64,000 nucleotides of DNA from a bacterium (GTDB lineage Bacteria; Zhuqueibacterota; QNDG01; JAFGCO01), in NCBI GenBank assembly GCA_016932575.1, contig JAFGCO010000011.1, forward strand, positions 108,321 to 172,320, written 5' to 3'. A program made the translations under genes and the position numbers. The notes under the pieces are model-generated. The model was not told where the DNA came from. It saw nothing but the letters and a program-made list of their open reading frames with translations, and ran no database searches. Shown here piece after piece: positions 2,615-59,077 of the stretch (the first letter of the stretch is position 1; each line of letters begins with the position of its first letter).

Positions 2615-2710
2615 CTCTCTTTTATCGATGATTAAAACCGGCTGCCGTAAAACCGTTTTTTCAGGCAGTTTGATACGCCATTAACAAGATTGTCAATCAA
2701 GTCGCAAATG

Positions 2711-2745
2711 AACCTCCGGGCGGTTTTTAAAACCTCCCGGAGGTT
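2711..2745. repeat. GC-rich palindromic hairpin element (AACCTCCGGG ... CCCGGAGGTT) in pstS-pstC intergenic region
   Basis: 10-bp arms 2711-2720 and 2736-2745 are exact reverse complements; related to the doublet at 58397-58461. Confidence 0.5.
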
Positions 2746-2822
2746 TAAAACATCATTTTTAAATGTATATGACACGAGCTTCAACGATAATGACACGTCA
2801 CTCAGTCAAATTTTATCTCTTA

Positions 2823-3707
2823 TTAAAATCCGGCCTTTTTATTCTGTTCAAGATACTCGCCGGCCACCGGATAAAAGGACATTTCTTCGACAATTTTCTG
2901 TCCTTCACCCAGCTCAAATGCAATAAAATCCTTGACCTCGCCGGTTGGTTTGCCGTTCACATACTGATACAAAGCGCGGGTAATCGGATATTTACCGGAT
3001 TTTACATTCTCTGCGTTCAAAGGATCCACAGGCTCCGAATCCAGATCCCGGGCGACTTTCAATACCTTTAATCCTTCACGAACATTGCCTGCATCATCAT
3101 AAACATAGCCCACACCCACATAACCAATACCCGCTTTATCCGCAAGCACGCCTTCGACAATCTGGGCGTTTCCGTTCATGCGTTTCATCCGGGCCGAATA
3201 GTCTTTTTTGCCTAACACATGCTCCTGAAAAAAGACGAATGTCCCTGAATTGGCCTGCCGGCCGTAAAGCGAAACCGGCATATCCGGTCCGCCTACTTGA
3301 TTCCAGTTCAGTATTTCACCCCGGAAGATTTTACCGATCTGATTCACCGTTAAATGGCCGATTGGATTGTCACCGTGAACAATCACGGACAGCCCGTCGA
3401 TACCGACCACAATCTCATAAGGCATAACACCATTCTCTTTGGCCGCGGTCTTTTCTTTATCTTTCATGGGACGTGATGCATTGGCGATCTGTATGCGGTC
3501 GGCGATTAAAGCGGCGATACCCACACCCGAACCGCCACCTGTTGTGGCAATCATGGTTTCAGGATTTTGTTCCATATACACTTCGGACAGACGCTGCACC
3601 AGATTGATCAGTGTGTCAGAGCCTTTGATCTGAATGAAGCCCTGAGCGAATCCCTGAGCTGCAAGCAAGCTCAGCATGATCACTGTGAGTAAACATTTTC
3701 GAATCAT
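2823..3707 (-). CDS. pstS: phosphate-binding protein PstS
   Basis: 294-aa ORF with signal peptide and PstS-like sequence (TTGGGSGVG); SD AAGGAG upstream of ATG. Confidence 0.88.
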   Translation of the reverse strand: MIRKCLLTVIMLSLLAAQGFAQGFIQIKGSDTLINLVQRLSEVYMEQNPETMIATTGGGSGVGIAALIADRIQIANASRPMKDKEKTAAKENGVMPYEIVVGIDGLSVIVHGDNPIGHLTVNQIGKIFRGEILNWNQVGGPDMPVSLYGRQANSGTFVFFQEHVLGKKDYSARMKRMNGNAQIVEGVLADKAGIGYVGVGYVYDDAGNVREGLKVLKVARDLDSEPVDPLNAENVKSGKYPITRALYQYVNGKPTGEVKDFIAFELGEGQKIVEEMSFYPVAGEYLEQNKKAGF

Positions 3708-4908: not shown

Positions 4909-5136
4909 ACTTTACTCCTTCCTTACAGTGTTAATAACAATGTTCGATCAAATGCCACCATTCAGGATAAAGATGAATGCATCACTTTTTTTCATCCTGA
5001 ACAATTTCAAACTAAAATCCATTCGTTAATATATCATTTGCGTTTTGTTAGAATTATGTTAGGATGATAAAACCATTTGCATTTCTTGCTGAGTTCCACT
5101 ATTTTCTTGAAAATATTTTTAATACAGGACAATAAA

Positions 5137-5814
5137 ATGACATCACGATTACAGCATGAATTAAATCAGCTTAAAAAGAGTGTTCTTACTCTGGGTGCTG
5201 CTGTCGAAGACGGACTGCACCGGGCTGTGAAAGCATTGCAGGAAAGAGACGAAAAAATCGCACAGAAAATAATCGAATCGGATCATGAAATCGACAATAT
5301 GGAAGTGGATCTTGAAGAGGAATGTCTGAAACTGCTCGCCCTGCATCAGCCCGTGGCCACGGATCTTCGGTTTATTGTGGCAGTGCTGAAGATCAACAAC
5401 GATCTGGAACGGATCGGCGACCTTTCCGTCAATATTGCTGAAAGGGCCAAATTTCTAGCGTTTCAGCCTCCCGTCAACCTGCCTCTGGATTTTCGAAGCA
5501 TGGCCGACGCGGTTCAGAAAATGCTGAAGAAAAGTCTGGATGCCCTGGTGAATATGGATGAACAACTGGCCGGTGAAGTGATCGATACGGATGATCGGGT
5601 TGACAACATGAACCGGGACATGTATCAGCAAATTCAGGAGGCCATTATTAAAAATCCCGGTCAGATTGAAAGTCTCATCCATCTGCTCAGCACATCCAGA
5701 CACCTGGAGCGCATCGCCGACCAGACGACCAATATAGCAGAGGATGTGATTTACATGATCAAAGGCGAAATTGTCCGGCATAAGACAGAGGAGTATCAGC
5801 ATAAAAAGAAATAG
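5137..5814 (+). CDS. phoU: phosphate signalling regulator PhoU
   Basis: Two PhoU repeats (DxxxDxxE-type helices, ERIGD/ERIAD motifs); start moved to ATG at 5137 (M21 of the track ORF). Confidence 0.88.
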   Translation: MTSRLQHELNQLKKSVLTLGAAVEDGLHRAVKALQERDEKIAQKIIESDHEIDNMEVDLEEECLKLLALHQPVATDLRFIVAVLKINNDLERIGDLSVNIAERAKFLAFQPPVNLPLDFRSMADAVQKMLKKSLDALVNMDEQLAGEVIDTDDRVDNMNRDMYQQIQEAIIKNPGQIESLIHLLSTSRHLERIADQTTNIAEDVIYMIKGEIVRHKTEEYQHKKK

Positions 5815-5848
5815 AGCTGTATTGAAGCCCAAAAGTAGTAAACACTTG

Positions 5849-6330
5849 TTTCTTGATTCTTATTTCCTGATTCTTGTCTCTTTGTCTTGTTTCTTTTTCT
5901 CCGCCTCTCCGACACTCCCGCGCTCCGTTTCTGTCTCTCGACCGCAGACCGCAGACCGGAGACCGCAAAGAATTAGTAGATGGGTAAATGTGTATATGGG
6001 TAGATGCGTCCACCACTTCTCCCCACCAAATACACAAATAGGATGAATTTCCACGGCGGCAGGAATGAAGGGAACTCATTTACTCATTTTTTAAATTTCT
6101 TGATTCTTATTTCCTGATTCTTGTCTCTTTGTCTTGTTTCTTCTTCTCCGCCTCTCCGACACTCCCATGCTCCGTTTCTGTCTCTCGACCAACGACTAAT
6201 GGACTCTCTGACTCTACGACCCTGCTTGCTGCCGCTTTTGATTCTTGATTCCTGTTTCTTGATTCTTGTTTTTTCTCCGCCTCTCCGACACTCCCATGCT
6301 CCGTTTCTGTCTCTCGACCAACGACCAAAT
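5849..6330. repeat. three tandem copies of a CT-rich ~80-95 bp repeat unit
   Basis: Near-identical cores CTCCGCCTCTCCGACACTCCC(GC/AT)GCTCCGTTTCTGTCTCTCGACC at about 5895-5942, 6142-6189 and 6272-6319, each preceded by CTTGATTCTTATTTCCTGATTCTTGTCT-type leader. Confidence 0.75.
5940..5967. repeat. heptanucleotide microsatellite (GACCGCA)x4, one unit GACCGGA
   Basis: Direct reading of 5940-5967 at the 3' end of repeat copy A. Confidence 0.7.
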
Positions 6331-7020
6331 GAAAAAAAGCTGTCGTATCGACCGAAGCGGAGAGACTCGGGATCTTAAGAGACTTTGGATGTGCACCATC
6401 ACCGGCTTGATAAATACAATACTCTTTGCAGACCACAGATCCCTCTACTGTGATACTGTTTAAAAACCCCGGGTGCCGAGCGAAGCGAGTCCCCGGGTGT
6501 TTTAAAATACATTATTTTTAATGAAATTAGTGACTATACAATAGCTATGGAATCCAAAGAACACCGTGGATCTATTCGTTTTCACACAGTCACTTCGCTC
6601 AGACCCAAACCAGACGAAAGCGACAGGATGACCGAACCGGAAACGAGGGTTGTCATCCTGAAGGAGTGAAGCGACTGAAGGATCTGTTACTGCCTAAGGC
6701 CCATAAAGACAATAATCCTTGCTTCAACTGCACAATGCTTCTGATAAAACAACCATTTGTCCTGATGTTACTGAAGCCTCTTTAAAACCCGTCGCATCGC
6801 AGGTTCAGATTCTTCGCTCCTTTCAGTCGCTATGAATGACAAAGAGCGTGGTTTTATTATGTCATCCCTACACCAAACTGGCATACCCTGAGTTTATCAA
6901 AGGATAAGTCTCCGAGGAGAATTCCAGCTTCACTCGATTCTTTAATTTCTGATCATAATTTCTCCACGGCTTCCTTATTCTTTTAGTTTAATCTTCACGT
7001 ATATCCCCTATTTCCCCCTT

Positions 7021-7125
7021 GTTTCTTGATTCTTATTTCTTGTCTTGTCTTTTGACTCAACGACCAACGACTCCATAACTCTATGACTCTACGACTCAAT
7101 GACCCAACAACTCAAAGACTCCTCA
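7021..7125. repeat. degenerate copy of the same repeat family with octamer-periodic GACTCNAN tract
   Basis: Shares the leader TTTCTTGATTCTTATTTC and the tail CGACCAACGACTCC...GACTCTACGAC with copy B (6098-6228) but lacks the core. Confidence 0.5.
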
Positions 7126-7180
7126 GAACTATTTCCCATATTTCCTTATATCCCCTATTTCTCCATTCCTTTACTTTCAC

Positions 7181-7220
7181 AAAAAAAGCCCCTTAAGACA
7201 ATCCTTAAGGGGCTTTTTTA
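7181..7220 (-). terminator. intrinsic terminator (bidirectional hairpin) downstream of 7236..8669
   Basis: AGCCCCTTAAG-loop-CTTAAGGGGCT stem flanked by A-run and T-run. Confidence 0.65.
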
Positions 7221-7235
7221 TTCGATATGATTTTA

Positions 7236-8669
7236 TTATAAATTAAACGGATACCTGAACGCGAGCCTCGGCTGCACCCGTTCCTGTGAAATATACTTCA
7301 TGTGTTTGTCGCTCCACACAAAATTCCAGATATAATCCATATAAATCAGCAGATAGGGCTTAACCTTATATCCCACGCCAACGCGTGCCACGGACCGGTT
7401 ATCCAGAGTGCGCACATCTTCGAAGTCGTCAATGCCGATTTTATCATAAGTGGCTTCTGCCTGGATAAACGGAATATTGTCTGAGAGTCCGGCACCGAAA
7501 TGCAAAGCCCCGCTGTTATCCTGATCGTCAATCCGCTGATAGGATCCCATAACCTTCACAAACTTGAAAAAATCAAGATAAAGTGCCCCGTACCAGCCAT
7601 GGCGTTTTTCAGTAATCATGGGCAGCAGCATTTTCTGTGTGATGGGAATATCCAGATCCCGGATAAAATCATATTCTTCCGGTAAAATCCCGCCATTGGC
7701 TTCATAAAAATCCACCAATTGAGCAATCGATGTCTGCCTAAGAACTTCATACATCGGCCCGTAATAATTCGCAATAAAATGCTTGCCGAGGAACCGGCGT
7801 TCAAAATTCACACTCAGGTTAAGGTTGTTCCAGAGCGCATTGAGATCGGCGCGAATACCAATGGTCTGGCCGCTTCCCGTTTTATCACTGCTGATGCCAT
7901 CATCCATCTGAGGAACCGAAACGACAATTTCGTTGAGGGAATTAATCATGTCTTTCTGGCTTTGAGGATCAACAATCGCAGCGTGATCTGCATAGAGCAG
8001 TAAATTCAGCAGATCTGTTTTTACAAGCGGCAGATCAACATCGACGCCCCAGACTCCTATACTTTCATCCTCGCCAAACGCATCTTTTAAATCCACATCC
8101 GTCACATAACTGGCACCGAATCCCAGATTACGAAGCACAGGGATGGATTTGGAATACATCGGACGTACATAGACACGACCGCCGATCACCTGCAAACGGC
8201 CCAGGTTGTTGGTCATGCTTTCAAATCCGGCCATACCAAAATCAACATCGAAAGAAAGCCCGAGCTTTCGTTTATCATAATTGATTTGATTGTTGTAAAA
8301 ATTCAGAATAAAGCCATGTCCGATTCGGGCGGCATCGAGGGCACCGATCCTTGCATAAACCTTGTCCCCCTTAAGCCCCCATCGTAAATAACGGATCATT
8401 CGGGCATAATCATAATCTTCATCCCAATCCTCAGAACGGATCTTTCCGGTATCTGTATTGATCAGCAGATCCAGATTTAATCCGATCCCCAGTTTGCCAA
8501 TACTGATATCAGGCTGGAAAGAAATATTGTAATACGGCTGCTCATCAATCCATGTCATCCCGACGCCGCCGTCCAATTCACTGCCGCCGGTTGCCATATA
8601 ACCGGACCATTGACCATAAACCAGACTTATAAAACACATCAGGCACAGCACAGCAAGGATTCTTTTCAT
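7236..8669 (-). CDS. hypothetical secreted / outer-membrane protein
   Basis: 477-aa ORF, N-terminal signal peptide, SD AGGAGG, own terminator; no family recognised. Confidence 0.6.
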   Translation of the reverse strand: MKRILAVLCLMCFISLVYGQWSGYMATGGSELDGGVGMTWIDEQPYYNISFQPDISIGKLGIGLNLDLLINTDTGKIRSEDWDEDYDYARMIRYLRWGLKGDKVYARIGALDAARIGHGFILNFYNNQINYDKRKLGLSFDVDFGMAGFESMTNNLGRLQVIGGRVYVRPMYSKSIPVLRNLGFGASYVTDVDLKDAFGEDESIGVWGVDVDLPLVKTDLLNLLLYADHAAIVDPQSQKDMINSLNEIVVSVPQMDDGISSDKTGSGQTIGIRADLNALWNNLNLSVNFERRFLGKHFIANYYGPMYEVLRQTSIAQLVDFYEANGGILPEEYDFIRDLDIPITQKMLLPMITEKRHGWYGALYLDFFKFVKVMGSYQRIDDQDNSGALHFGAGLSDNIPFIQAEATYDKIGIDDFEDVRTLDNRSVARVGVGYKVKPYLLIYMDYIWNFVWSDKHMKYISQERVQPRLAFRYPFNL

Positions 8670-13305: not shown

Positions 13306-15153
13306 TTATGTTTCAAGATGATCGTACCAGGTTTTTTTCAATATAAAACACGTAATTACAATAATGGCGATGGTGATTGCTAGAGCGCCGAATTTCTGTA
13401 TGACAATAAAAATAGGCAAGGCAACCAATGCGGTCTGCGCAATAATACCAATGATAATATTAAACATATCCCGCTTGAAATTCATATTCTTCTGGAATGC
13501 CGGATCTTCAGCAATCACCTTTTCATAGATCGGCTTCCAGAATCCCCACGGGCGAACCGACTTATAAAACTTTTTCAGGGTTCCTTCATCCGTGGGGGGG
13601 GTCATGATTGTACCCAAAATACAGCCTATAGCAGATATAACCAGAATAACGGGGAAGAAATAGAGTAAAATGATATCCTTAGGAATATCCGGAAACATCG
13701 GGGGCAGTATTTTAGGAAATATTAAAGCAGGAATAATTCCGGTGAGCATACCCCAGAAGTAGCCGTGCCCGTTAAACCGCCACCAGTACCATTTCAAGAC
13801 ATTGGCTGCGATGTATCCGCCCCATAATCCCGAAACAAGCCAAATCAGCACGCTGTTGATATTTTTTGCAAATACACCAAAAACAATACTGACTGCGACC
13901 ACGATTAAACCAATCGTGTAATTTGCCACTTTCACCTGTTTATCCGTAGCTTCCGGTTTGATATATTTTAAATAGATATCATTAATGACATAAGCCTGGG
14001 CGGCATTAAGTGTACCTGCAAATGTCGAATTAAACGCTGCCAAAAGACCGGCCAGGATCAGGCCCAATATGCCCAACGGGGCGAACTGATTGATAGATGA
14101 AGGCAAAATCTGTTCAAAATCAATTTTTCCTGCCACAATCAAATCCAGCTTATCGTAGAACAAAAGAGCCAGAACACCGAATCCGGCAATCATAAAATAT
14201 CGAATCGGATTTAAAATCACCGAAACAAATCCGCTCATTTTAGCAGCCTCTTTCGGATTCTTCGTGGCCAGGATCTTTTGCATATCATAATTCGGAGCGG
14301 GTCCTGCGGCACTGACAAGCACGCCTTTGAATATTAACATCCCGATAAACAGAGAGAACAATGAATATCCGTCTGTAGCAATTTTTGTATTCACTTCATT
14401 AATCACACCGGTCCAGTCAAGATTTAAATTCCATCCAAAAAACGGTGTTTCCCAGCCATTCGGAACCATAAGATGATTTGAAGCAAGGGCATGCATTGCG
14501 ATTATGCCAATAACCAGAGAAGAAACAGTCATGATCAGATATTGAACCAGGTCGGCCCAGACAATACTGATCATACCGCCGATAATTGTATAGAAAACCG
14601 CAAATGCCGTAAAAACCAAACCGTATAAATGCGGAACATATTCTGGTGCCACATGAAATGGAACATATTGAGAAACAATTTCCCAGGGAATAAAGATTTC
14701 AATAAATTTCCCCAGCCCGACAAATCCGTAAGCCAGAAAACCGAGGCAGCTGATAAGCGCAAATACAACCACGATATTATGTGAAAGCTGGGCGTCTCTT
14801 TTTTCTCCAAAACGGGTACTGATCCACTCTGCACCTGTAGTGACATTGGACCGCCTCAGCCAGGCGGAAAGATAAACCATCAGAAAAATCTGGTTAAAAA
14901 TCGGCCATAACCAGGGAATCCAAATACTCTTGAGTCCGTAAACAAACATCAATGTTACAAGCCACATGGTTCCGGAAATATCAAACATTCCCGAAGCATT
15001 GGACAGCCCTAATAAATACCATGGCAATTCATTACCACCCAATAGATAAGAACTTTTACTCTTCTGGGCTCTCTTTCTCAGGATGAGCCCGATGATCACT
15101 GTTGATAAGAGATAAATACCGATGATCAGAATATCGATCAAACGCAGGTTCAT
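13306..15153 (-). CDS. sodium:solute symporter family transporter
   Basis: 615 aa, 13-14 predicted TM helices, SSF-type sequence; SD AAGGAG. Confidence 0.85.
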   Translation of the reverse strand: MNLRLIDILIIGIYLLSTVIIGLILRKRAQKSKSSYLLGGNELPWYLLGLSNASGMFDISGTMWLVTLMFVYGLKSIWIPWLWPIFNQIFLMVYLSAWLRRSNVTTGAEWISTRFGEKRDAQLSHNIVVVFALISCLGFLAYGFVGLGKFIEIFIPWEIVSQYVPFHVAPEYVPHLYGLVFTAFAVFYTIIGGMISIVWADLVQYLIMTVSSLVIGIIAMHALASNHLMVPNGWETPFFGWNLNLDWTGVINEVNTKIATDGYSLFSLFIGMLIFKGVLVSAAGPAPNYDMQKILATKNPKEAAKMSGFVSVILNPIRYFMIAGFGVLALLFYDKLDLIVAGKIDFEQILPSSINQFAPLGILGLILAGLLAAFNSTFAGTLNAAQAYVINDIYLKYIKPEATDKQVKVANYTIGLIVVAVSIVFGVFAKNINSVLIWLVSGLWGGYIAANVLKWYWWRFNGHGYFWGMLTGIIPALIFPKILPPMFPDIPKDIILLYFFPVILVISAIGCILGTIMTPPTDEGTLKKFYKSVRPWGFWKPIYEKVIAEDPAFQKNMNFKRDMFNIIIGIIAQTALVALPIFIVIQKFGALAITIAIIVITCFILKKTWYDHLET

Positions 15154-19061: not shown

Positions 19062-20669
19062 TTATTTCATCAGCATCATCTTGTTGGTGATAACTTCCGT
19101 TGCTGTTTCCAGCGTGTAGAAGTAAACACCACTGCTGAAGTTAGAACCGTCAAATGTGACGGTGTTCAAACCGGCCTGACGTACATCATTCACCAGTGTG
19201 GCAACTTCGTTGCCCAGAACATCGTACACGGTCAGTTTCACAGCACTCTTCTGAAGCAGGTTGAACTGAATCGTGGTAGACGGGTTGAAAGGATTGGGGA
19301 AGTTCTGAGCCAGAGCGAATTCATCCGGCTGTGCAATATCTTCGACCGCATCGCCACCGACGAGCATGGCTGTTCCCATGCGGGAGGCATCGGCCCAGGT
19401 CATATTGTCACTGCCCCACCAGCGCAGCATGTCTTCGCGTTTGTCCGTTCCGTCACGGTCGTTGATCTGAATTTCGAAGCCAATTTCTGTATCCGCTTCC
19501 AGATCCATCGGCAGATCGGCTGCAGGAATCGTCAATTCACAGGTATAGCCTTCGAGGTCTTCTGCCAGCTCGCCCCAGGCAAAGACACTGTTGGGAGAGT
19601 TGTAATCGTTGACCGGATTGTCCCAGACCCAGCGCATCTGAAGGTCATTGGCATCATAAGAGGTGGCTTTTTCATTGCCGCCGTCGAAACAGAGCTCGAT
19701 ACTGTCGTTCTCATAGCTGTTGGCGCCGCTTGTGTCGAGAACGTCATCAATGATTTCAAACCACAGATAGAGGGCGTCGGCATCCCAGGCGGCCCTGAAT
19801 TCCATCTGAAGGTCTTCCCATTCTTCGATCTCGGTAAAGCTGCCGTCCACCTGATCGGCATTGGTATACACATAGGTGCCTGCTTCGATGACGGGAACAT
19901 CCTGCCACGCAGCATCCAGCTCGCCGTCGACTTCCAGGGCTGCAGGAGCCGGTCCGATATTCAGGACATCGTCAGCTTCATAACCGATCAGCTCGGCAGT
20001 TCCGAACAAAGAAGGATCCTGCCATGCCATGTTGTCTGTACCCCACCAGCGGTACATGTGTTCGCGGCTTTCATTGTCACGGTCATTAATCTGAATCTCG
20101 AAACCGAAAACTTCACCCTCTTCGGCCACAATGCCCAGGGGGTCCAGAGGAAATGCGACTTCGAGGATCCAGCCAAAAGCATCACCGTCAATGGCTTCCC
20201 ATTCGGCTGTGGCGGCTTCGGTGCCTTCTGGACAACTGTCATACAGTGAGGCGTCCGAACCATCCTGAAGCTCGATACGTGTCTGAACGTCATCGGCTCC
20301 GTAGGTGGTTTCTTTATCGTTTCCGGCATCAAAATAAATCTCGGCGCTGTCATTCTCGTAAGAGTTGGCTGAACTTGAGCTGAGTTCATCATCCACAACT
20401 TTGATGAAAATATAAAGATTGGTGTCATCCCACAAAACACGGGATTCAACGAACAGATCAAGATAGCCATCGACTTCTATAGATTCGCCATCGAGCTTTA
20501 CGCAGCGTTCGGTCGAAGCTGCCCAGTAAACAACATCCATGTCACCATCGATAACCGGTGCAGTGGCGGCTTTGTGAACCTGCCATACATCATCTTTAAC
20601 ATAGGCCATCGAGGCTGCAACAAAAATAATCATTGACAAACAAATCAGTGCGGATAACACTCTTTTCAT
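19062..20669 (-). CDS. secreted protein with two CBM9-like carbohydrate-binding domains and T9SS C-terminal sorting domain
   Basis: 535 aa; signal peptide; duplicated module (..WDDTNLYIFIKVVDD.., ..WDADALYLWFEIIDD..); C-terminal NFPNPFNPSTTIQF...GVYFYTLE. Confidence 0.75.
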   Translation of the reverse strand: MKRVLSALICLSMIIFVAASMAYVKDDVWQVHKAATAPVIDGDMDVVYWAASTERCVKLDGESIEVDGYLDLFVESRVLWDDTNLYIFIKVVDDELSSSSANSYENDSAEIYFDAGNDKETTYGADDVQTRIELQDGSDASLYDSCPEGTEAATAEWEAIDGDAFGWILEVAFPLDPLGIVAEEGEVFGFEIQINDRDNESREHMYRWWGTDNMAWQDPSLFGTAELIGYEADDVLNIGPAPAALEVDGELDAAWQDVPVIEAGTYVYTNADQVDGSFTEIEEWEDLQMEFRAAWDADALYLWFEIIDDVLDTSGANSYENDSIELCFDGGNEKATSYDANDLQMRWVWDNPVNDYNSPNSVFAWGELAEDLEGYTCELTIPAADLPMDLEADTEIGFEIQINDRDGTDKREDMLRWWGSDNMTWADASRMGTAMLVGGDAVEDIAQPDEFALAQNFPNPFNPSTTIQFNLLQKSAVKLTVYDVLGNEVATLVNDVRQAGLNTVTFDGSNFSSGVYFYTLETATEVITNKMMLMK

Positions 20670-55020: not shown

Positions 55021-55280
55021 GATTCTGTCCCCCCAAATAATGAATTGAAATCACAAAATAAATAAAATCAACAAAAACAAAATAGAAATCCTTTTTAATA
55101 TTGTCAAGATCGTTCTTGATCATTAAAAAAGACAATTTTTGTTTTTTATTTCTGGAATTTGGAATTTTTTATTTGATTTTTATAATTTGAGGTTTTATCT
55201 GAATTTTGAGAAATATCATTATTTGGGTCAAATATTAAGCTGTCAGTAATAAAACCGATGAGAACTGTTTATTTCTGGTT

Positions 55281-58768: not shown

Positions 58769-59077
58769 TCAAATCGCTTCTGAATATACTTTAACTTCGT
58801 CTTCAAGTTTATCACCCAATTTATCTAACTCCACTTCTAAATCGTAATGTGATTGCAGATTAGTCCAAAATTGCGGTGAAATATTGAAGAAGCGACCTAG
58901 TCTTAAAGCCGTATCCGCACTGAAAGATCGTTTACAGTGTACTATCTCATTTATACGTCGAGGGGGAACATTTATATCTTTTGATAATCTGTATTGTGAG
59001 ATCCCCATCGCATCCAGAAATTCTTCCTTTAATATTTCCCCGGGGTGTATGGGTGGTATCTTATTTTCTTTAATCAT
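58769..59077 (-). CDS. higA: HigA-family antitoxin (XRE-type HTH)
   Basis: 102 aa; IHPGEILKEEFLDAMGISQYRLSKDINVPPRRINEIV...SADTALRLGRFFNISPQFWTNLQSHYDL. Confidence 0.8.
   Translation of the reverse strand: MIKENKIPPIHPGEILKEEFLDAMGISQYRLSKDINVPPRRINEIVHCKRSFSADTALRLGRFFNISPQFWTNLQSHYDLEVELDKLGDKLEDEVKVYSEAI

Follow-up and report, generated by a model that had tools for sequence, protein, structure and literature searches.

A mosaic of degenerate heptamer and octamer arrays in the intergenic region downstream of phoU in a KSB1-like bacterium

The intergenic region between phoU and a convergently transcribed gene for a 477-aa protein (positions 5815-7235 of the 64-kb stretch of DNA that was analysed, called the window in the following) is very probably a non-coding mosaic of degenerate tandem arrays of 7- and 8-nt words, in which a composite block of 95 nt has been triplicated locally. 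With 1421 nt this gap is the longest gene-free stretch of the window, which was taken from a metagenome-assembled genome and is about 86% coding on a crude map of open reading frames (ORFs). An earlier reading of the sequence alone (the sequence-only reading) had noted a gene-free tract of 1.4 kb after phoU, and the tract is real: phoU ends at 5814 and the next gene ends at 7236. What that reading overlooked is the composite make-up of the repeat unit from 7- and 8-nt words and the repeat vocabulary found throughout the lineage. By its sequence the tract can be assigned to the known class of intergenic heptamer-repeat assemblages, and there is no support for its being a clustered regularly interspaced short palindromic repeat (CRISPR) array, a miniature inverted-repeat transposable element (MITE), a structured small RNA, or a gene remnant. 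The complete explanation, in which the mosaic would in addition serve phoU as a Rho-loading or insulating trailer, is an evenly balanced proposition.

Repeat anatomy of the gap

Three copies of a 95-nt pyrimidine-rich unit are located at 5849-5943, 6096-6190 (97% identity), and 6225-6319 (68% overall). Each copy includes a 45-nt core (Table 1), and the cores agree at 43-45 of their 45 positions; the first core has two mismatches to both the second and the third, and no matches of this kind are expected in shuffled sequences. The sequence-only reading had described three tandem copies of a unit of about 80-95 bp. Three copies do exist, and so do the three cores, but the core coordinates were off by about 4 nt and the units are not arranged head-to-tail: they are interspersed, with intervening stretches of 152 nt and about 50 nt, which results in start-to-start distances of 247 and 129 nt.

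The unit is itself a composite. It starts with degenerate heptamers (YTGNTTC), continues with the core of four or five CTCCNNNN octamers, and ends in GACCGCA or CGACNNNN arrays. Downstream of the core, unit 1 is followed by four GACCGCA heptamers, and units 2 and 3 by CGACCAAC / GACTCTCT octamers. Every core contains four CTCC motifs (GGAG on the opposite strand) at an exact period of 8, where 0.00 such runs are expected. Over the whole tract the array types YTGNTTC, CTCCNNNN, GACCGCA, CGAC/GACTCNNN, and TATTTCCC were found. Tandem Repeats Finder (TRF) reports arrays with periods of 7, 8, 14, and 16 in the gap, all of them degenerate (68-90% matches). Autocorrelation gives the same picture with signals at lag 7 (z=3.2) and lag 8 (z=3.3-4.9; 9.3 over 5845-6330), the latter rising to 4.4-4.9 once the octamer arrays after the core of unit 2 are counted in; neither the middle part of the gap nor phoU has such a signal.

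A degenerate fourth copy had also been proposed. The composite near the end of the gap (copy 4) resembles the unit in its heptamer part (88% over 43 nt) and in its CGAC/GACTC octamer part (83% over 35 nt; the octamer array at 6186-6232 against 7061-7095), but the 45-nt core is absent, so that only part of the unit is represented in 7018-7121.

The claim that one strand is strongly pyrimidine-rich is well founded. Four of the five most pyrimidine-rich 78-nt segments of the 64 kb fall in the gap (about 80-82% C+T). The C/G ratio of the plus strand is 2.4-4.8 in the repeat segments, which rank 1st, 5th, and 12th in the window for C minus G, and this difference reaches 0.33 per 78 nt compared to a window mean of 0.043 (sd 0.076). 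In RNA form the words read (UUGAUUC)n and (CUCCNNNN)4, and on the pyrimidine strand the units fold like shuffled sequences (z from -0.25 to +0.63; -7.7 to -18 kcal/mol). On the opposite strand unit 1 alone folds, via its private GACCGCA array, and a structure common to the units is missing.

Search for genes, RNAs, and mobile elements

Each of the six frames of the gap has 19-23 stop codons. The ORFs of 85-109 aa over the repeats read different copies in different frames and are therefore translated repeats, as the sequence-only reading had stated; one of them (109 aa, 6107-6436) splits the gap in the list of gene-free stretches. Pfam searches with ten gap ORFs gave no match. Six-frame peptides of the non-repeat middle (6320-7020) matched nothing in the fetched related loci and, at E<=0.01, none of 5.8 billion proteins. 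A decayed gene, the outcome that would have overturned the earlier interpretation, was rejected, as no trace of a gene was obtained by tblastn, Pfam, or protein-database searches: the S8 peptidase that is encoded at this position in the nearest relative (see below) has no tblastn match in the gap (best E 66) or in the whole window.

Repeated small RNAs had been considered before, together with a covariance-model search. No Rfam family was matched over the whole 64 kb in gathering mode, and in E-value mode over 5000-8000 only sub-threshold matches appeared near the gap (7172-7306), all of which derive from the terminator hairpin of the 477-aa gene. The promoter scan of the gap yielded no convincing promoter and one weak site on the minus strand (6884-6856), and the 64 kb contain no tRNA or tmRNA. 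With units that fold like shuffles, have no structure in common, and belong to no Rfam family, a structured small RNA was discarded. CRISPR had already been excluded, and rightly so: the units of 95 nt compare to direct repeats of 23-47 nt, they are spaced irregularly (247 and 129 nt), they are periodic internally, and no Cas domains were found among the scanned window ORFs of at least 150 aa.

A MITE-like element, another of the earlier suggestions, gained no support. In a search for MITEs and palindromes no inverted arms were detected around the units, no target-site duplication is common to the flanks of units 1 and 2, and no further unit copies were found in the 64 kb of the source genome, the related loci, or the public collections. 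In addition, no transposase, integrase, reverse transcriptase, or domain resembling the transposases associated with repetitive extragenic palindromes (RAYT) was found among the scanned window ORFs, and BLAST searches of plasmid and phage collections with the whole gap gave no match. Repetitive extragenic palindromes and bacterial interspersed mosaic elements (REP/BIME) were rejected as an identity because the units are not palindromic and fold like shuffles on the pyrimidine strand. The same applies to an array of Pho boxes, for which a period of 11 would be expected: at lag 11, z is between -1.0 and 2.1 in all sub-regions compared to 3-9 at lags 7 and 8, and the site is located between two 3' ends and not in a promoter. 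The promoter spacer between phoU and the porin gene does not resemble the repeats. Phase-variable contingency repeats were dismissed as well, the units being degenerate, placed at 3' ends, and invariant between contigs with 99.8-100% identity.

Repeat vocabulary of the related genomes

A comparison with related genomes, which the sequence-only reading had recommended, proved informative: sub-arrays recur, the core does not, and the content of the spacer differs. It is based on 21 related loci, all fetched around this neighbourhood. The nearest relative is represented by three contigs from three samples (L002, L003, and L008; 477-aa protein 85% identical), L006 is the 74% relative, and L017 is the 42% relative.

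The 45-nt core has no copy in the window outside 5849-6319. A search of the 21 loci with a core profile (nhmmer) revealed nothing beyond a weak similarity in L002 (20407-20433, E 0.2). An exact 21-mer of the core is not found in metagenome and viral collections, and in genome collections (the source genome being covered by the window only) it has a single match, inside a GC-rich coding region of L001 (Phycisphaerales), which is regarded as chance. The sub-arrays, in contrast, recur in the closest KSB1-like relatives and are always intergenic there. Arrays of period 7 or 8 number 11 in 17.5 kb of L006, four in L002, two in L004, and six in L017, and most other distant relatives have none. In the close relatives all of them are intergenic, as are seven of the eight in the window; the eighth (3103-3132, inside pstS) is unrelated. 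Four genomes contain runs of AAGA at period 7, compared to an expectation of 0.25 for all loci together. With the same period, GACC is repeated in the window and in L006, there in a spacer that is not homologous (GACCGCA tandem, L006 1935-1959; 0.00 expected). The arrays thus appear to be part of a repeat vocabulary that is common to the nearest KSB1-like relatives.

Copy 4 is matched in L002 by an orthologue (14194-14298; nhmmer E 2e-29) and, in the same contig, by a paralogue (20310-20400). All three strong copies of this block adjoin phoU genes, which might be a sampling bias given how the loci were fetched. The composites of the window and L002 consist of shared blocks split by indels of whole modules, the window having three additional octamers and L002 a CCCTATA-type block, and the last 84 nt of copy 4 (7075-7158) are ungapped and 88-90% identical to L002. 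As whole units and modules have been gained or lost between species, replication slippage and unequal recombination are the processes pointed to.

About 1.2 kb of the gap (5833-7004, comprising the three units and the filler) have no counterpart in L002 or elsewhere. In L002, L003, and L008 an 893-aa S8 peptidase gene is situated exactly between the 477-aa gene and phoU, and in L006 the spacer is 118 nt long with one two-way terminator and no arrays after phoU. Because the gene content varies in this way, the spacer between phoU and the 477-aa gene appears to be indel-prone. The peptidase gene (L002 11528-14209, corresponding to window 7160-7181) is a present/absent polymorphism; it encodes a secreted protein (Peptidase_S8, Fn3_assoc, CHB_HEX_C_1), and its stop codon abuts the repeat composite of L002.

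Where arrays come after phoU, as in the window and in L002, the gene is without an intrinsic terminator; in L006, where it is not followed by arrays, it has one. The arrays of L006 are arranged in inverted pairs, in which AAGATTA units face TAATCTT units, and are of the AAGATTA or CAAATCC type. Four such pairs were found (L006 8334-8490, 9740-9878, 14541-14680, and 2000-2178), with arms of 36-51 nt and loops of 54-85 nt. Situated between genes of the same direction, they form hairpins of -33 to -45 kcal/mol (z from -3.3 to -6.5). A U run comes after one of them, and one is placed in the pstS-pstC spacer, for which the window shows hairpins of the ordinary kind. The arrays of the window and of L002 have a single orientation, and the RNA of an L002 array folds at only -6 kcal/mol for 140 nt.

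Origin, possible function, and rival explanations

For the origin of the tract we propose that old degenerate arrays were joined and that the resulting composite block of 95 nt was then duplicated locally to three copies, while about 670 nt of filler and the terminator of the neighbouring gene would fill out the gap. A dedicated RNA or protein product would not be expected. On the sense strand of phoU, the tract would instead provide a long, unstructured, C-rich, and G-poor 3' trailer resembling a Rho utilization (rut) site, and this trailer would end or insulate the read-through from phoU before it reaches the converging gene. The RNA has the sequence properties by which rut sites are described, being C-rich, G-poor, and unstructured over about 80 nt, and phoU, which precedes it, has no intrinsic terminator. 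Because of this composition, and because arrays and intrinsic terminators alternate after phoU, a function as Rho-loading or insulating trailer is the functional reading that we favour over others, though we hold it to be rather unlikely in itself. That the arrays in general occupy sites of transcript 3'-end formation is suggested, with low confidence, by the hairpins of L006 and the terminator pattern of phoU.

Several observations weigh against this explanation. Identical 7- and 8-nt words occur at non-homologous loci of different species, a pattern for which slippage alone is not sufficient. When contigs of one species were compared between samples, they were 99.8-100% identical and did not differ in the number of units in their arrays, so that the arrays seem to be old, degenerate, and not actively slipping at present. 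The 84-nt block at the end of copy 4 matches the flanking coding DNA (84-86%) in its conservation and exceeds most of nine other intergenic regions (33-89%), which hints at sequence-specific constraint and not at passive filler; this hint is weakened by the pst operon next door, which is also about 91% identical to L002. The second composite of L002 is located between pstB and a second phoU, and its pyrimidine strand is antisense to both, an arrangement at odds with a simple trailer at the 3' end. Finally, the Rho role is derived from composition and from three genomes. The second phoU of L002 (20539-21434) follows pstB and precedes a Na/Pi cotransporter gene; the corresponding region of the source genome begins just beyond the start of the window.

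The main rival, related to the protein-binding array that the sequence-only reading had put forward, is a platform for the sequence-specific loading of proteins, which we consider unlikely. Each unit would be bound by one protein, either a binder of single-stranded RNA or DNA (cold-shock OB-fold, S1, or Hfq-like) or a regulator of double-stranded DNA or nucleoid protein, and the arrays would act as scaffolds in the 3' untranslated region (3' UTR) or in the DNA. Such specificity would account for the words AAGAnnn/nnnTCTT, GACCGCA, and GACTCnnn being found far above shuffles at non-homologous intergenic sites of several species, for the ungapped conservation of the 84-nt block, and for the neighbourhood of its three strong copies to phoU genes, although the latter is again perhaps a matter of sampling. 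There are precedents, namely CspB, which according to PMC4679880 assembles on pyrimidine-rich heptamers with one protein per unit, and the TTTTGAT heptads of the cholera toxin promoter, which recruit regulators (bioRxiv 10.1101/2021.05.14.444153). However, a candidate binder is lacking, the unit sequences are imperfect, the core of CTCC octamers is seen at this locus only, and an 11-nt periodicity like that of Pho boxes is missing. Even less probable is a regulatory RNA or sponge, in which twelve CUCC motifs of the phoU 3' UTR, reminiscent of anti-Shine-Dalgarno sequences, would pair with ribosome-binding sites, or in which twelve GGAG/CGGAG motifs of the minus strand would titrate ribosomes or a CsrA-like protein. 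The density of CTCC is indeed 26.7 per kb in the arrays compared to 3.1 per kb elsewhere, and the exact 8-nt spacing of the four motifs per core in an unstructured RNA would leave them accessible. But the units are not framed by promoter or terminator, Rfam family and conserved structure are lacking, evolutionary support is missing because the core is absent from the relatives save for the weak similarity in L002 (E 0.2), and any role in the 3' UTR depends on read-through from phoU, which is only assumed.

The remnant of a mobile or foreign insertion that entered the spacer and was amplified locally, be it a MITE-like element, a mosaic like REP/BIME, or a scar left behind by an excised island, is improbable. 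It would fit the variable content of the spacer (the S8 peptidase in L002, nothing in L006), the 1.2 kb without counterpart in L002, the short hairpin-forming motifs of the middle part that are found nowhere else, the presence of the composite block at two sites in L002, and the inverted pairs of L006, which resemble REP/BIME hairpins. Yet the units have neither terminal inverted repeats nor target duplications, genes of the transposase, integrase, or RAYT-like kind are missing from the 64 kb, nothing matched in the collections of plasmids, phages, viruses, genomes, and metagenomes, and the GC content of the gap is like that of the rest of the window. It is hard to believe in an assembly artefact or a decayed protein-coding gene. 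Low-complexity repeats are prone to mis-assembly in metagenome-assembled genomes, and as units 1-3 and the middle part are seen in one assembly alone, a local mis-join could have happened; but both flanks are syntenic with the relatives, and copy 4 is confirmed independently by three contigs of another species. A decayed gene is suggested by the S8 peptidase gene at the same position in the nearest relative, but the tblastn and six-frame peptide searches described above speak against it.

Returning to the repeat mosaic with its trailer function, a far-reaching extension can be imagined, to which we assign a small probability. In the KSB1-like clade, the words AAGAnnn, GACCGCA, GAGTCnnn, GGAGnnnn, and GGGRAATA would constitute a modular system for 3'-end formation and insulation, and one or several lineage-specific single-strand-binding proteins would read them. 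Inverted pairs would form giant hairpins between co-directional genes (L006), tracts of one orientation would serve for the loading of Rho or Csp-type factors where genes converge (window and L002), and the 84-nt block with its three copies near phoU genes would be a conserved cis-element of the phosphate regulon.

Features of the gap and neighbouring genes

The positions of the repeat modules and of the flanking features are listed in Table 1.

Table 1. Coordinates of the features in and around the gap (window numbering).
Feature	Position	Strand	Evidence or remark
phoU	5137-5814	+	Pfam PhoU, E 1.3e-49
Heptamer array of unit 1 (TTGTTTC TTGATTC TTATTTC CTGATTC TTGTCTC ...)	5845-5898	+	TRF period 7, 8.3 copies; lag-7 z=3.2, lag-14 z=2.8
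Core copy 1, octamer array CTCCGCCT CTCCGACA CTCCCATG (also written CTCCCGCG) CTCCGTTT CTGTCTCT	5899-5943	+	lag-8 z=3.3
GACCGCA heptamer array, 4 copies, only after unit 1	5940-5967	+	TRF
Spacer between units 1 and 2, with GTAGATGGGTAAATGT x1.9 and ACTCATTT x2	5973-6094	+	TRF
Unit 2, heptamer array and core copy 2 (6146-6190)	6096-6190	+	97% identical to unit 1
Octamer array after unit 2, CGACCAAC GACTAATG GACTCTCT GACTCTAC	6186-6232	+	lag-8 z=4.4 for 6146-6232
Unit 3, TTGATTC heptamers, core copy 3 (6275-6319), and short CGACCAA tail	6236-6330	+	88% to unit 2 over 90 nt
Non-repetitive, non-coding middle, about 670 nt	6331-7004	.	without 7- or 8-nt periodicity
Composite copy 4	7005-7180	+	TRF; lag-8 z=4.6
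Copy 4, TATTTCCC-type array			
Copy 4, TTGATTC heptamers	7018-7057		
Copy 4, nine GACTCNNN octamers	7053-7121		
Copy 4, TATTTCCC array	7130-7166		
Two-way intrinsic terminator, 3' end of 477-aa gene	7182-7219	.	perfect 16-bp hairpin (100% complementary), A and T runs on flanks
477-aa gene	7236-8669	-	ends at 7236; no Pfam domain

In the spacer between units 1 and 2 the GTAGATGGGTAAATGT and ACTCATTT arms are weakly complementary and form an inverted pair (5973-5993 / 6074-6094, 76%). The middle part contains a GC-rich hairpin with A and T runs on either side (6459-6506) and an inverted pair that is imperfect (6661-6679 / 6804-6822); its RNA folds with z of -2.4 on the plus and -0.6 on the minus strand. 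A motif of the GAGCGAAGCGA type is present in three or four copies and in both orientations in the middle part (6459-6506, 6590-6600, 6652-6684, and 6802-6840), with three matches compared to 0.66 expected over the whole window. The GAGCGAAGCGA / GTCATYCTGA motif is absent from the related loci. Its translations (SFRMT, DSLRS, and SFDKLRV) are presumably similar to motifs of spurious ORFs in many uncultured genomes.

GANTC sites (GATTC in the heptamers and GACTC in the octamers) amount to 18-34 per kb in 5845-6330 and 7005-7180 compared to 4.3 per kb in the rest of the window, a density that may be relevant should the organism possess a GANTC methyltransferase. The AAGATTA arrays of L006 have no GANTC site. 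The only other repeat locus of this kind in the 64 kb is weak and AT-rich (55021-55280), between the genes of a DUF4139 protein and of valyl-tRNA synthetase, both on the minus strand. There, AAATCAC/AAAATAA units (55040-55095) face GAATTTG/TTATTTG units (55140-55215) with about 77-81% complementarity, and a similar locus is present in L017 (2811-2954).

For phoU, a TTG at 5077 or an ATG at 5137 are possible starts, and the 225 aa annotated in relatives fit the ATG. A terminator scan of the plus strand over 5815-7181 found no intrinsic terminator directly 3' of the phoU stop codon. The 477-aa product is 100% identical to the NCBI entry "hypothetical protein JW835_02840 [bacterium]". Its named relatives belong to the candidate division KSB1 (<=60% identity) and to the Calditrichaeota (44%). 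The protein has a signal-peptide-like N-terminus and more than 290 homologues in KSB1- and Calditrichaeota-like metagenome bins, where the gene is usually found downstream of dus, and it is probably a conserved outer-membrane protein without assigned function. KSB1 is presumably placed in the FCB (Fibrobacteres-Chlorobi-Bacteroidetes) group, the same broad group as the Bacteroidetes. To the left of phoU, a porin gene, pstS, pstC, pstA, and pstB are encoded on the minus strand, and the remainder of the window consists of ordinary chromosomal housekeeping genes. The pstS-pstC spacer of the window (2615-2822, 208 nt) is 89% identical to L002 without gaps, folds at -58 kcal/mol (z -3.6), and includes a strong CCUCCGGGAGG hairpin; its structure is likely an attenuator or an mRNA-stabilising element inside the pst operon. 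The second-largest apparent gap of the window contains an ORF of 102 aa with a helix-turn-helix sequence (58769-59077, minus strand), which we take to resemble HigA/VapI-type antitoxins.

Comparison with known repeat systems

Extragenic location, often at 3' ends or between the genes of an operon, and construction as a mosaic of few short motif types are properties that the tract has in common with the REP/BIME elements of enterobacteria. The array palindromes of L006 fold at -33 to -45 kcal/mol, and one of them is located in the pstS-pstC spacer. Presumably, E. coli also has a REP hairpin at the pstS-pstC junction. Unlike REP/BIME, the units of the window are not palindromic and not folded, no RAYT transposase was seen, and the repeats are tandem 7- and 8-mers instead of palindromes of 35 nt. 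With rut regions the tract shares a sequence that is C-rich, G-poor, and unstructured for at least 80 nt and that comes right after a gene lacking an intrinsic terminator. However, rut regions are defined by function and not by sequence and are not normally tandem repeats, the likeness here is one of composition, and four tracts over 1.3 kb exceed what termination needs.

The TTTTGAT heptads in the ctxAB promoter of Vibrio cholerae (bioRxiv 10.1101/2021.05.14.444153) are T-rich tandem heptamers that bind proteins, and their unit resembles TTGATTC / TTCTTGA. These heptads are perfect and belong to a promoter, whereas the arrays described here are degenerate and lie between two 3' ends.

The closest resemblance is to the long simple sequence repeats. 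Among the long simple repeats of prokaryotes, heptamers are the most frequent, and slippage of the polymerase has been named as their cause (Mrazek 2007, as cited in PMC4679880 and PMC4692102). The class with units of 5-11 nt, as outlined in the same two papers, includes the short tandemly repeated repetitive (STRR) heptamers of cyanobacteria and the GGGAATC repeats of Xanthomonas. The arrays of the gap agree with this class in their tandem 7- and 8-nt units, strictly intergenic location, presence of several arrays per genome among the relatives, imperfection, and variation in length and sequence between related species. They differ in their units, which are pyrimidine-rich (YTGNTTC, CTCCNNNN, and GACTCNNN) and not G-rich and quadruplex-prone, in the KSB1-like host, and in the joining of several array types to a composite, of which a 95-nt block was then triplicated. 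In the Bacteroidetes, long intergenic regions with assemblages of heptamer repeats are absent in close relatives and tied to altered neighbourhoods (MacGregor, PMC4679880). Like the assemblages of Gramella forsetii, Aequorivita sublithincola, and Elizabethkingia anophelis (PMC4679880), the tract is a long spacer with several kinds of heptamers, for which close relatives have shorter spacers without arrays and differing neighbour genes. In contrast to them, TAACTGA is not among the units, the arrays are found at 3' ends between convergent genes and not just upstream of starts, and those of L006 are inverted pairs that form long hairpins.

Recognising such tracts improves the annotation of uncultured lineages, because they yield spurious ORFs, such as the 109-aa "protein" translated from the repeats of this gap, and are vulnerable points in the assembly of metagenomes and places where genes are often gained and lost. 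For decades, assemblages of heptamer repeats have been recorded in Cyanobacteria, Xanthomonas, Beggiatoaceae, and Bacteroidetes without a known function. The KSB1-like lineage offers three clues: the words are common across species, L006 has long hairpins where terminators or mRNA-stabilising hairpins are expected, and the arrays apparently alternate with intrinsic terminators after phoU. With these clues, a role in 3'-end formation can be put to the test. A new type of system is not indicated, as the class itself has already been described in other bacteria; the differences lie in the unit sequences, the occurrence in a KSB1-like lineage, and the local triplication of the block.

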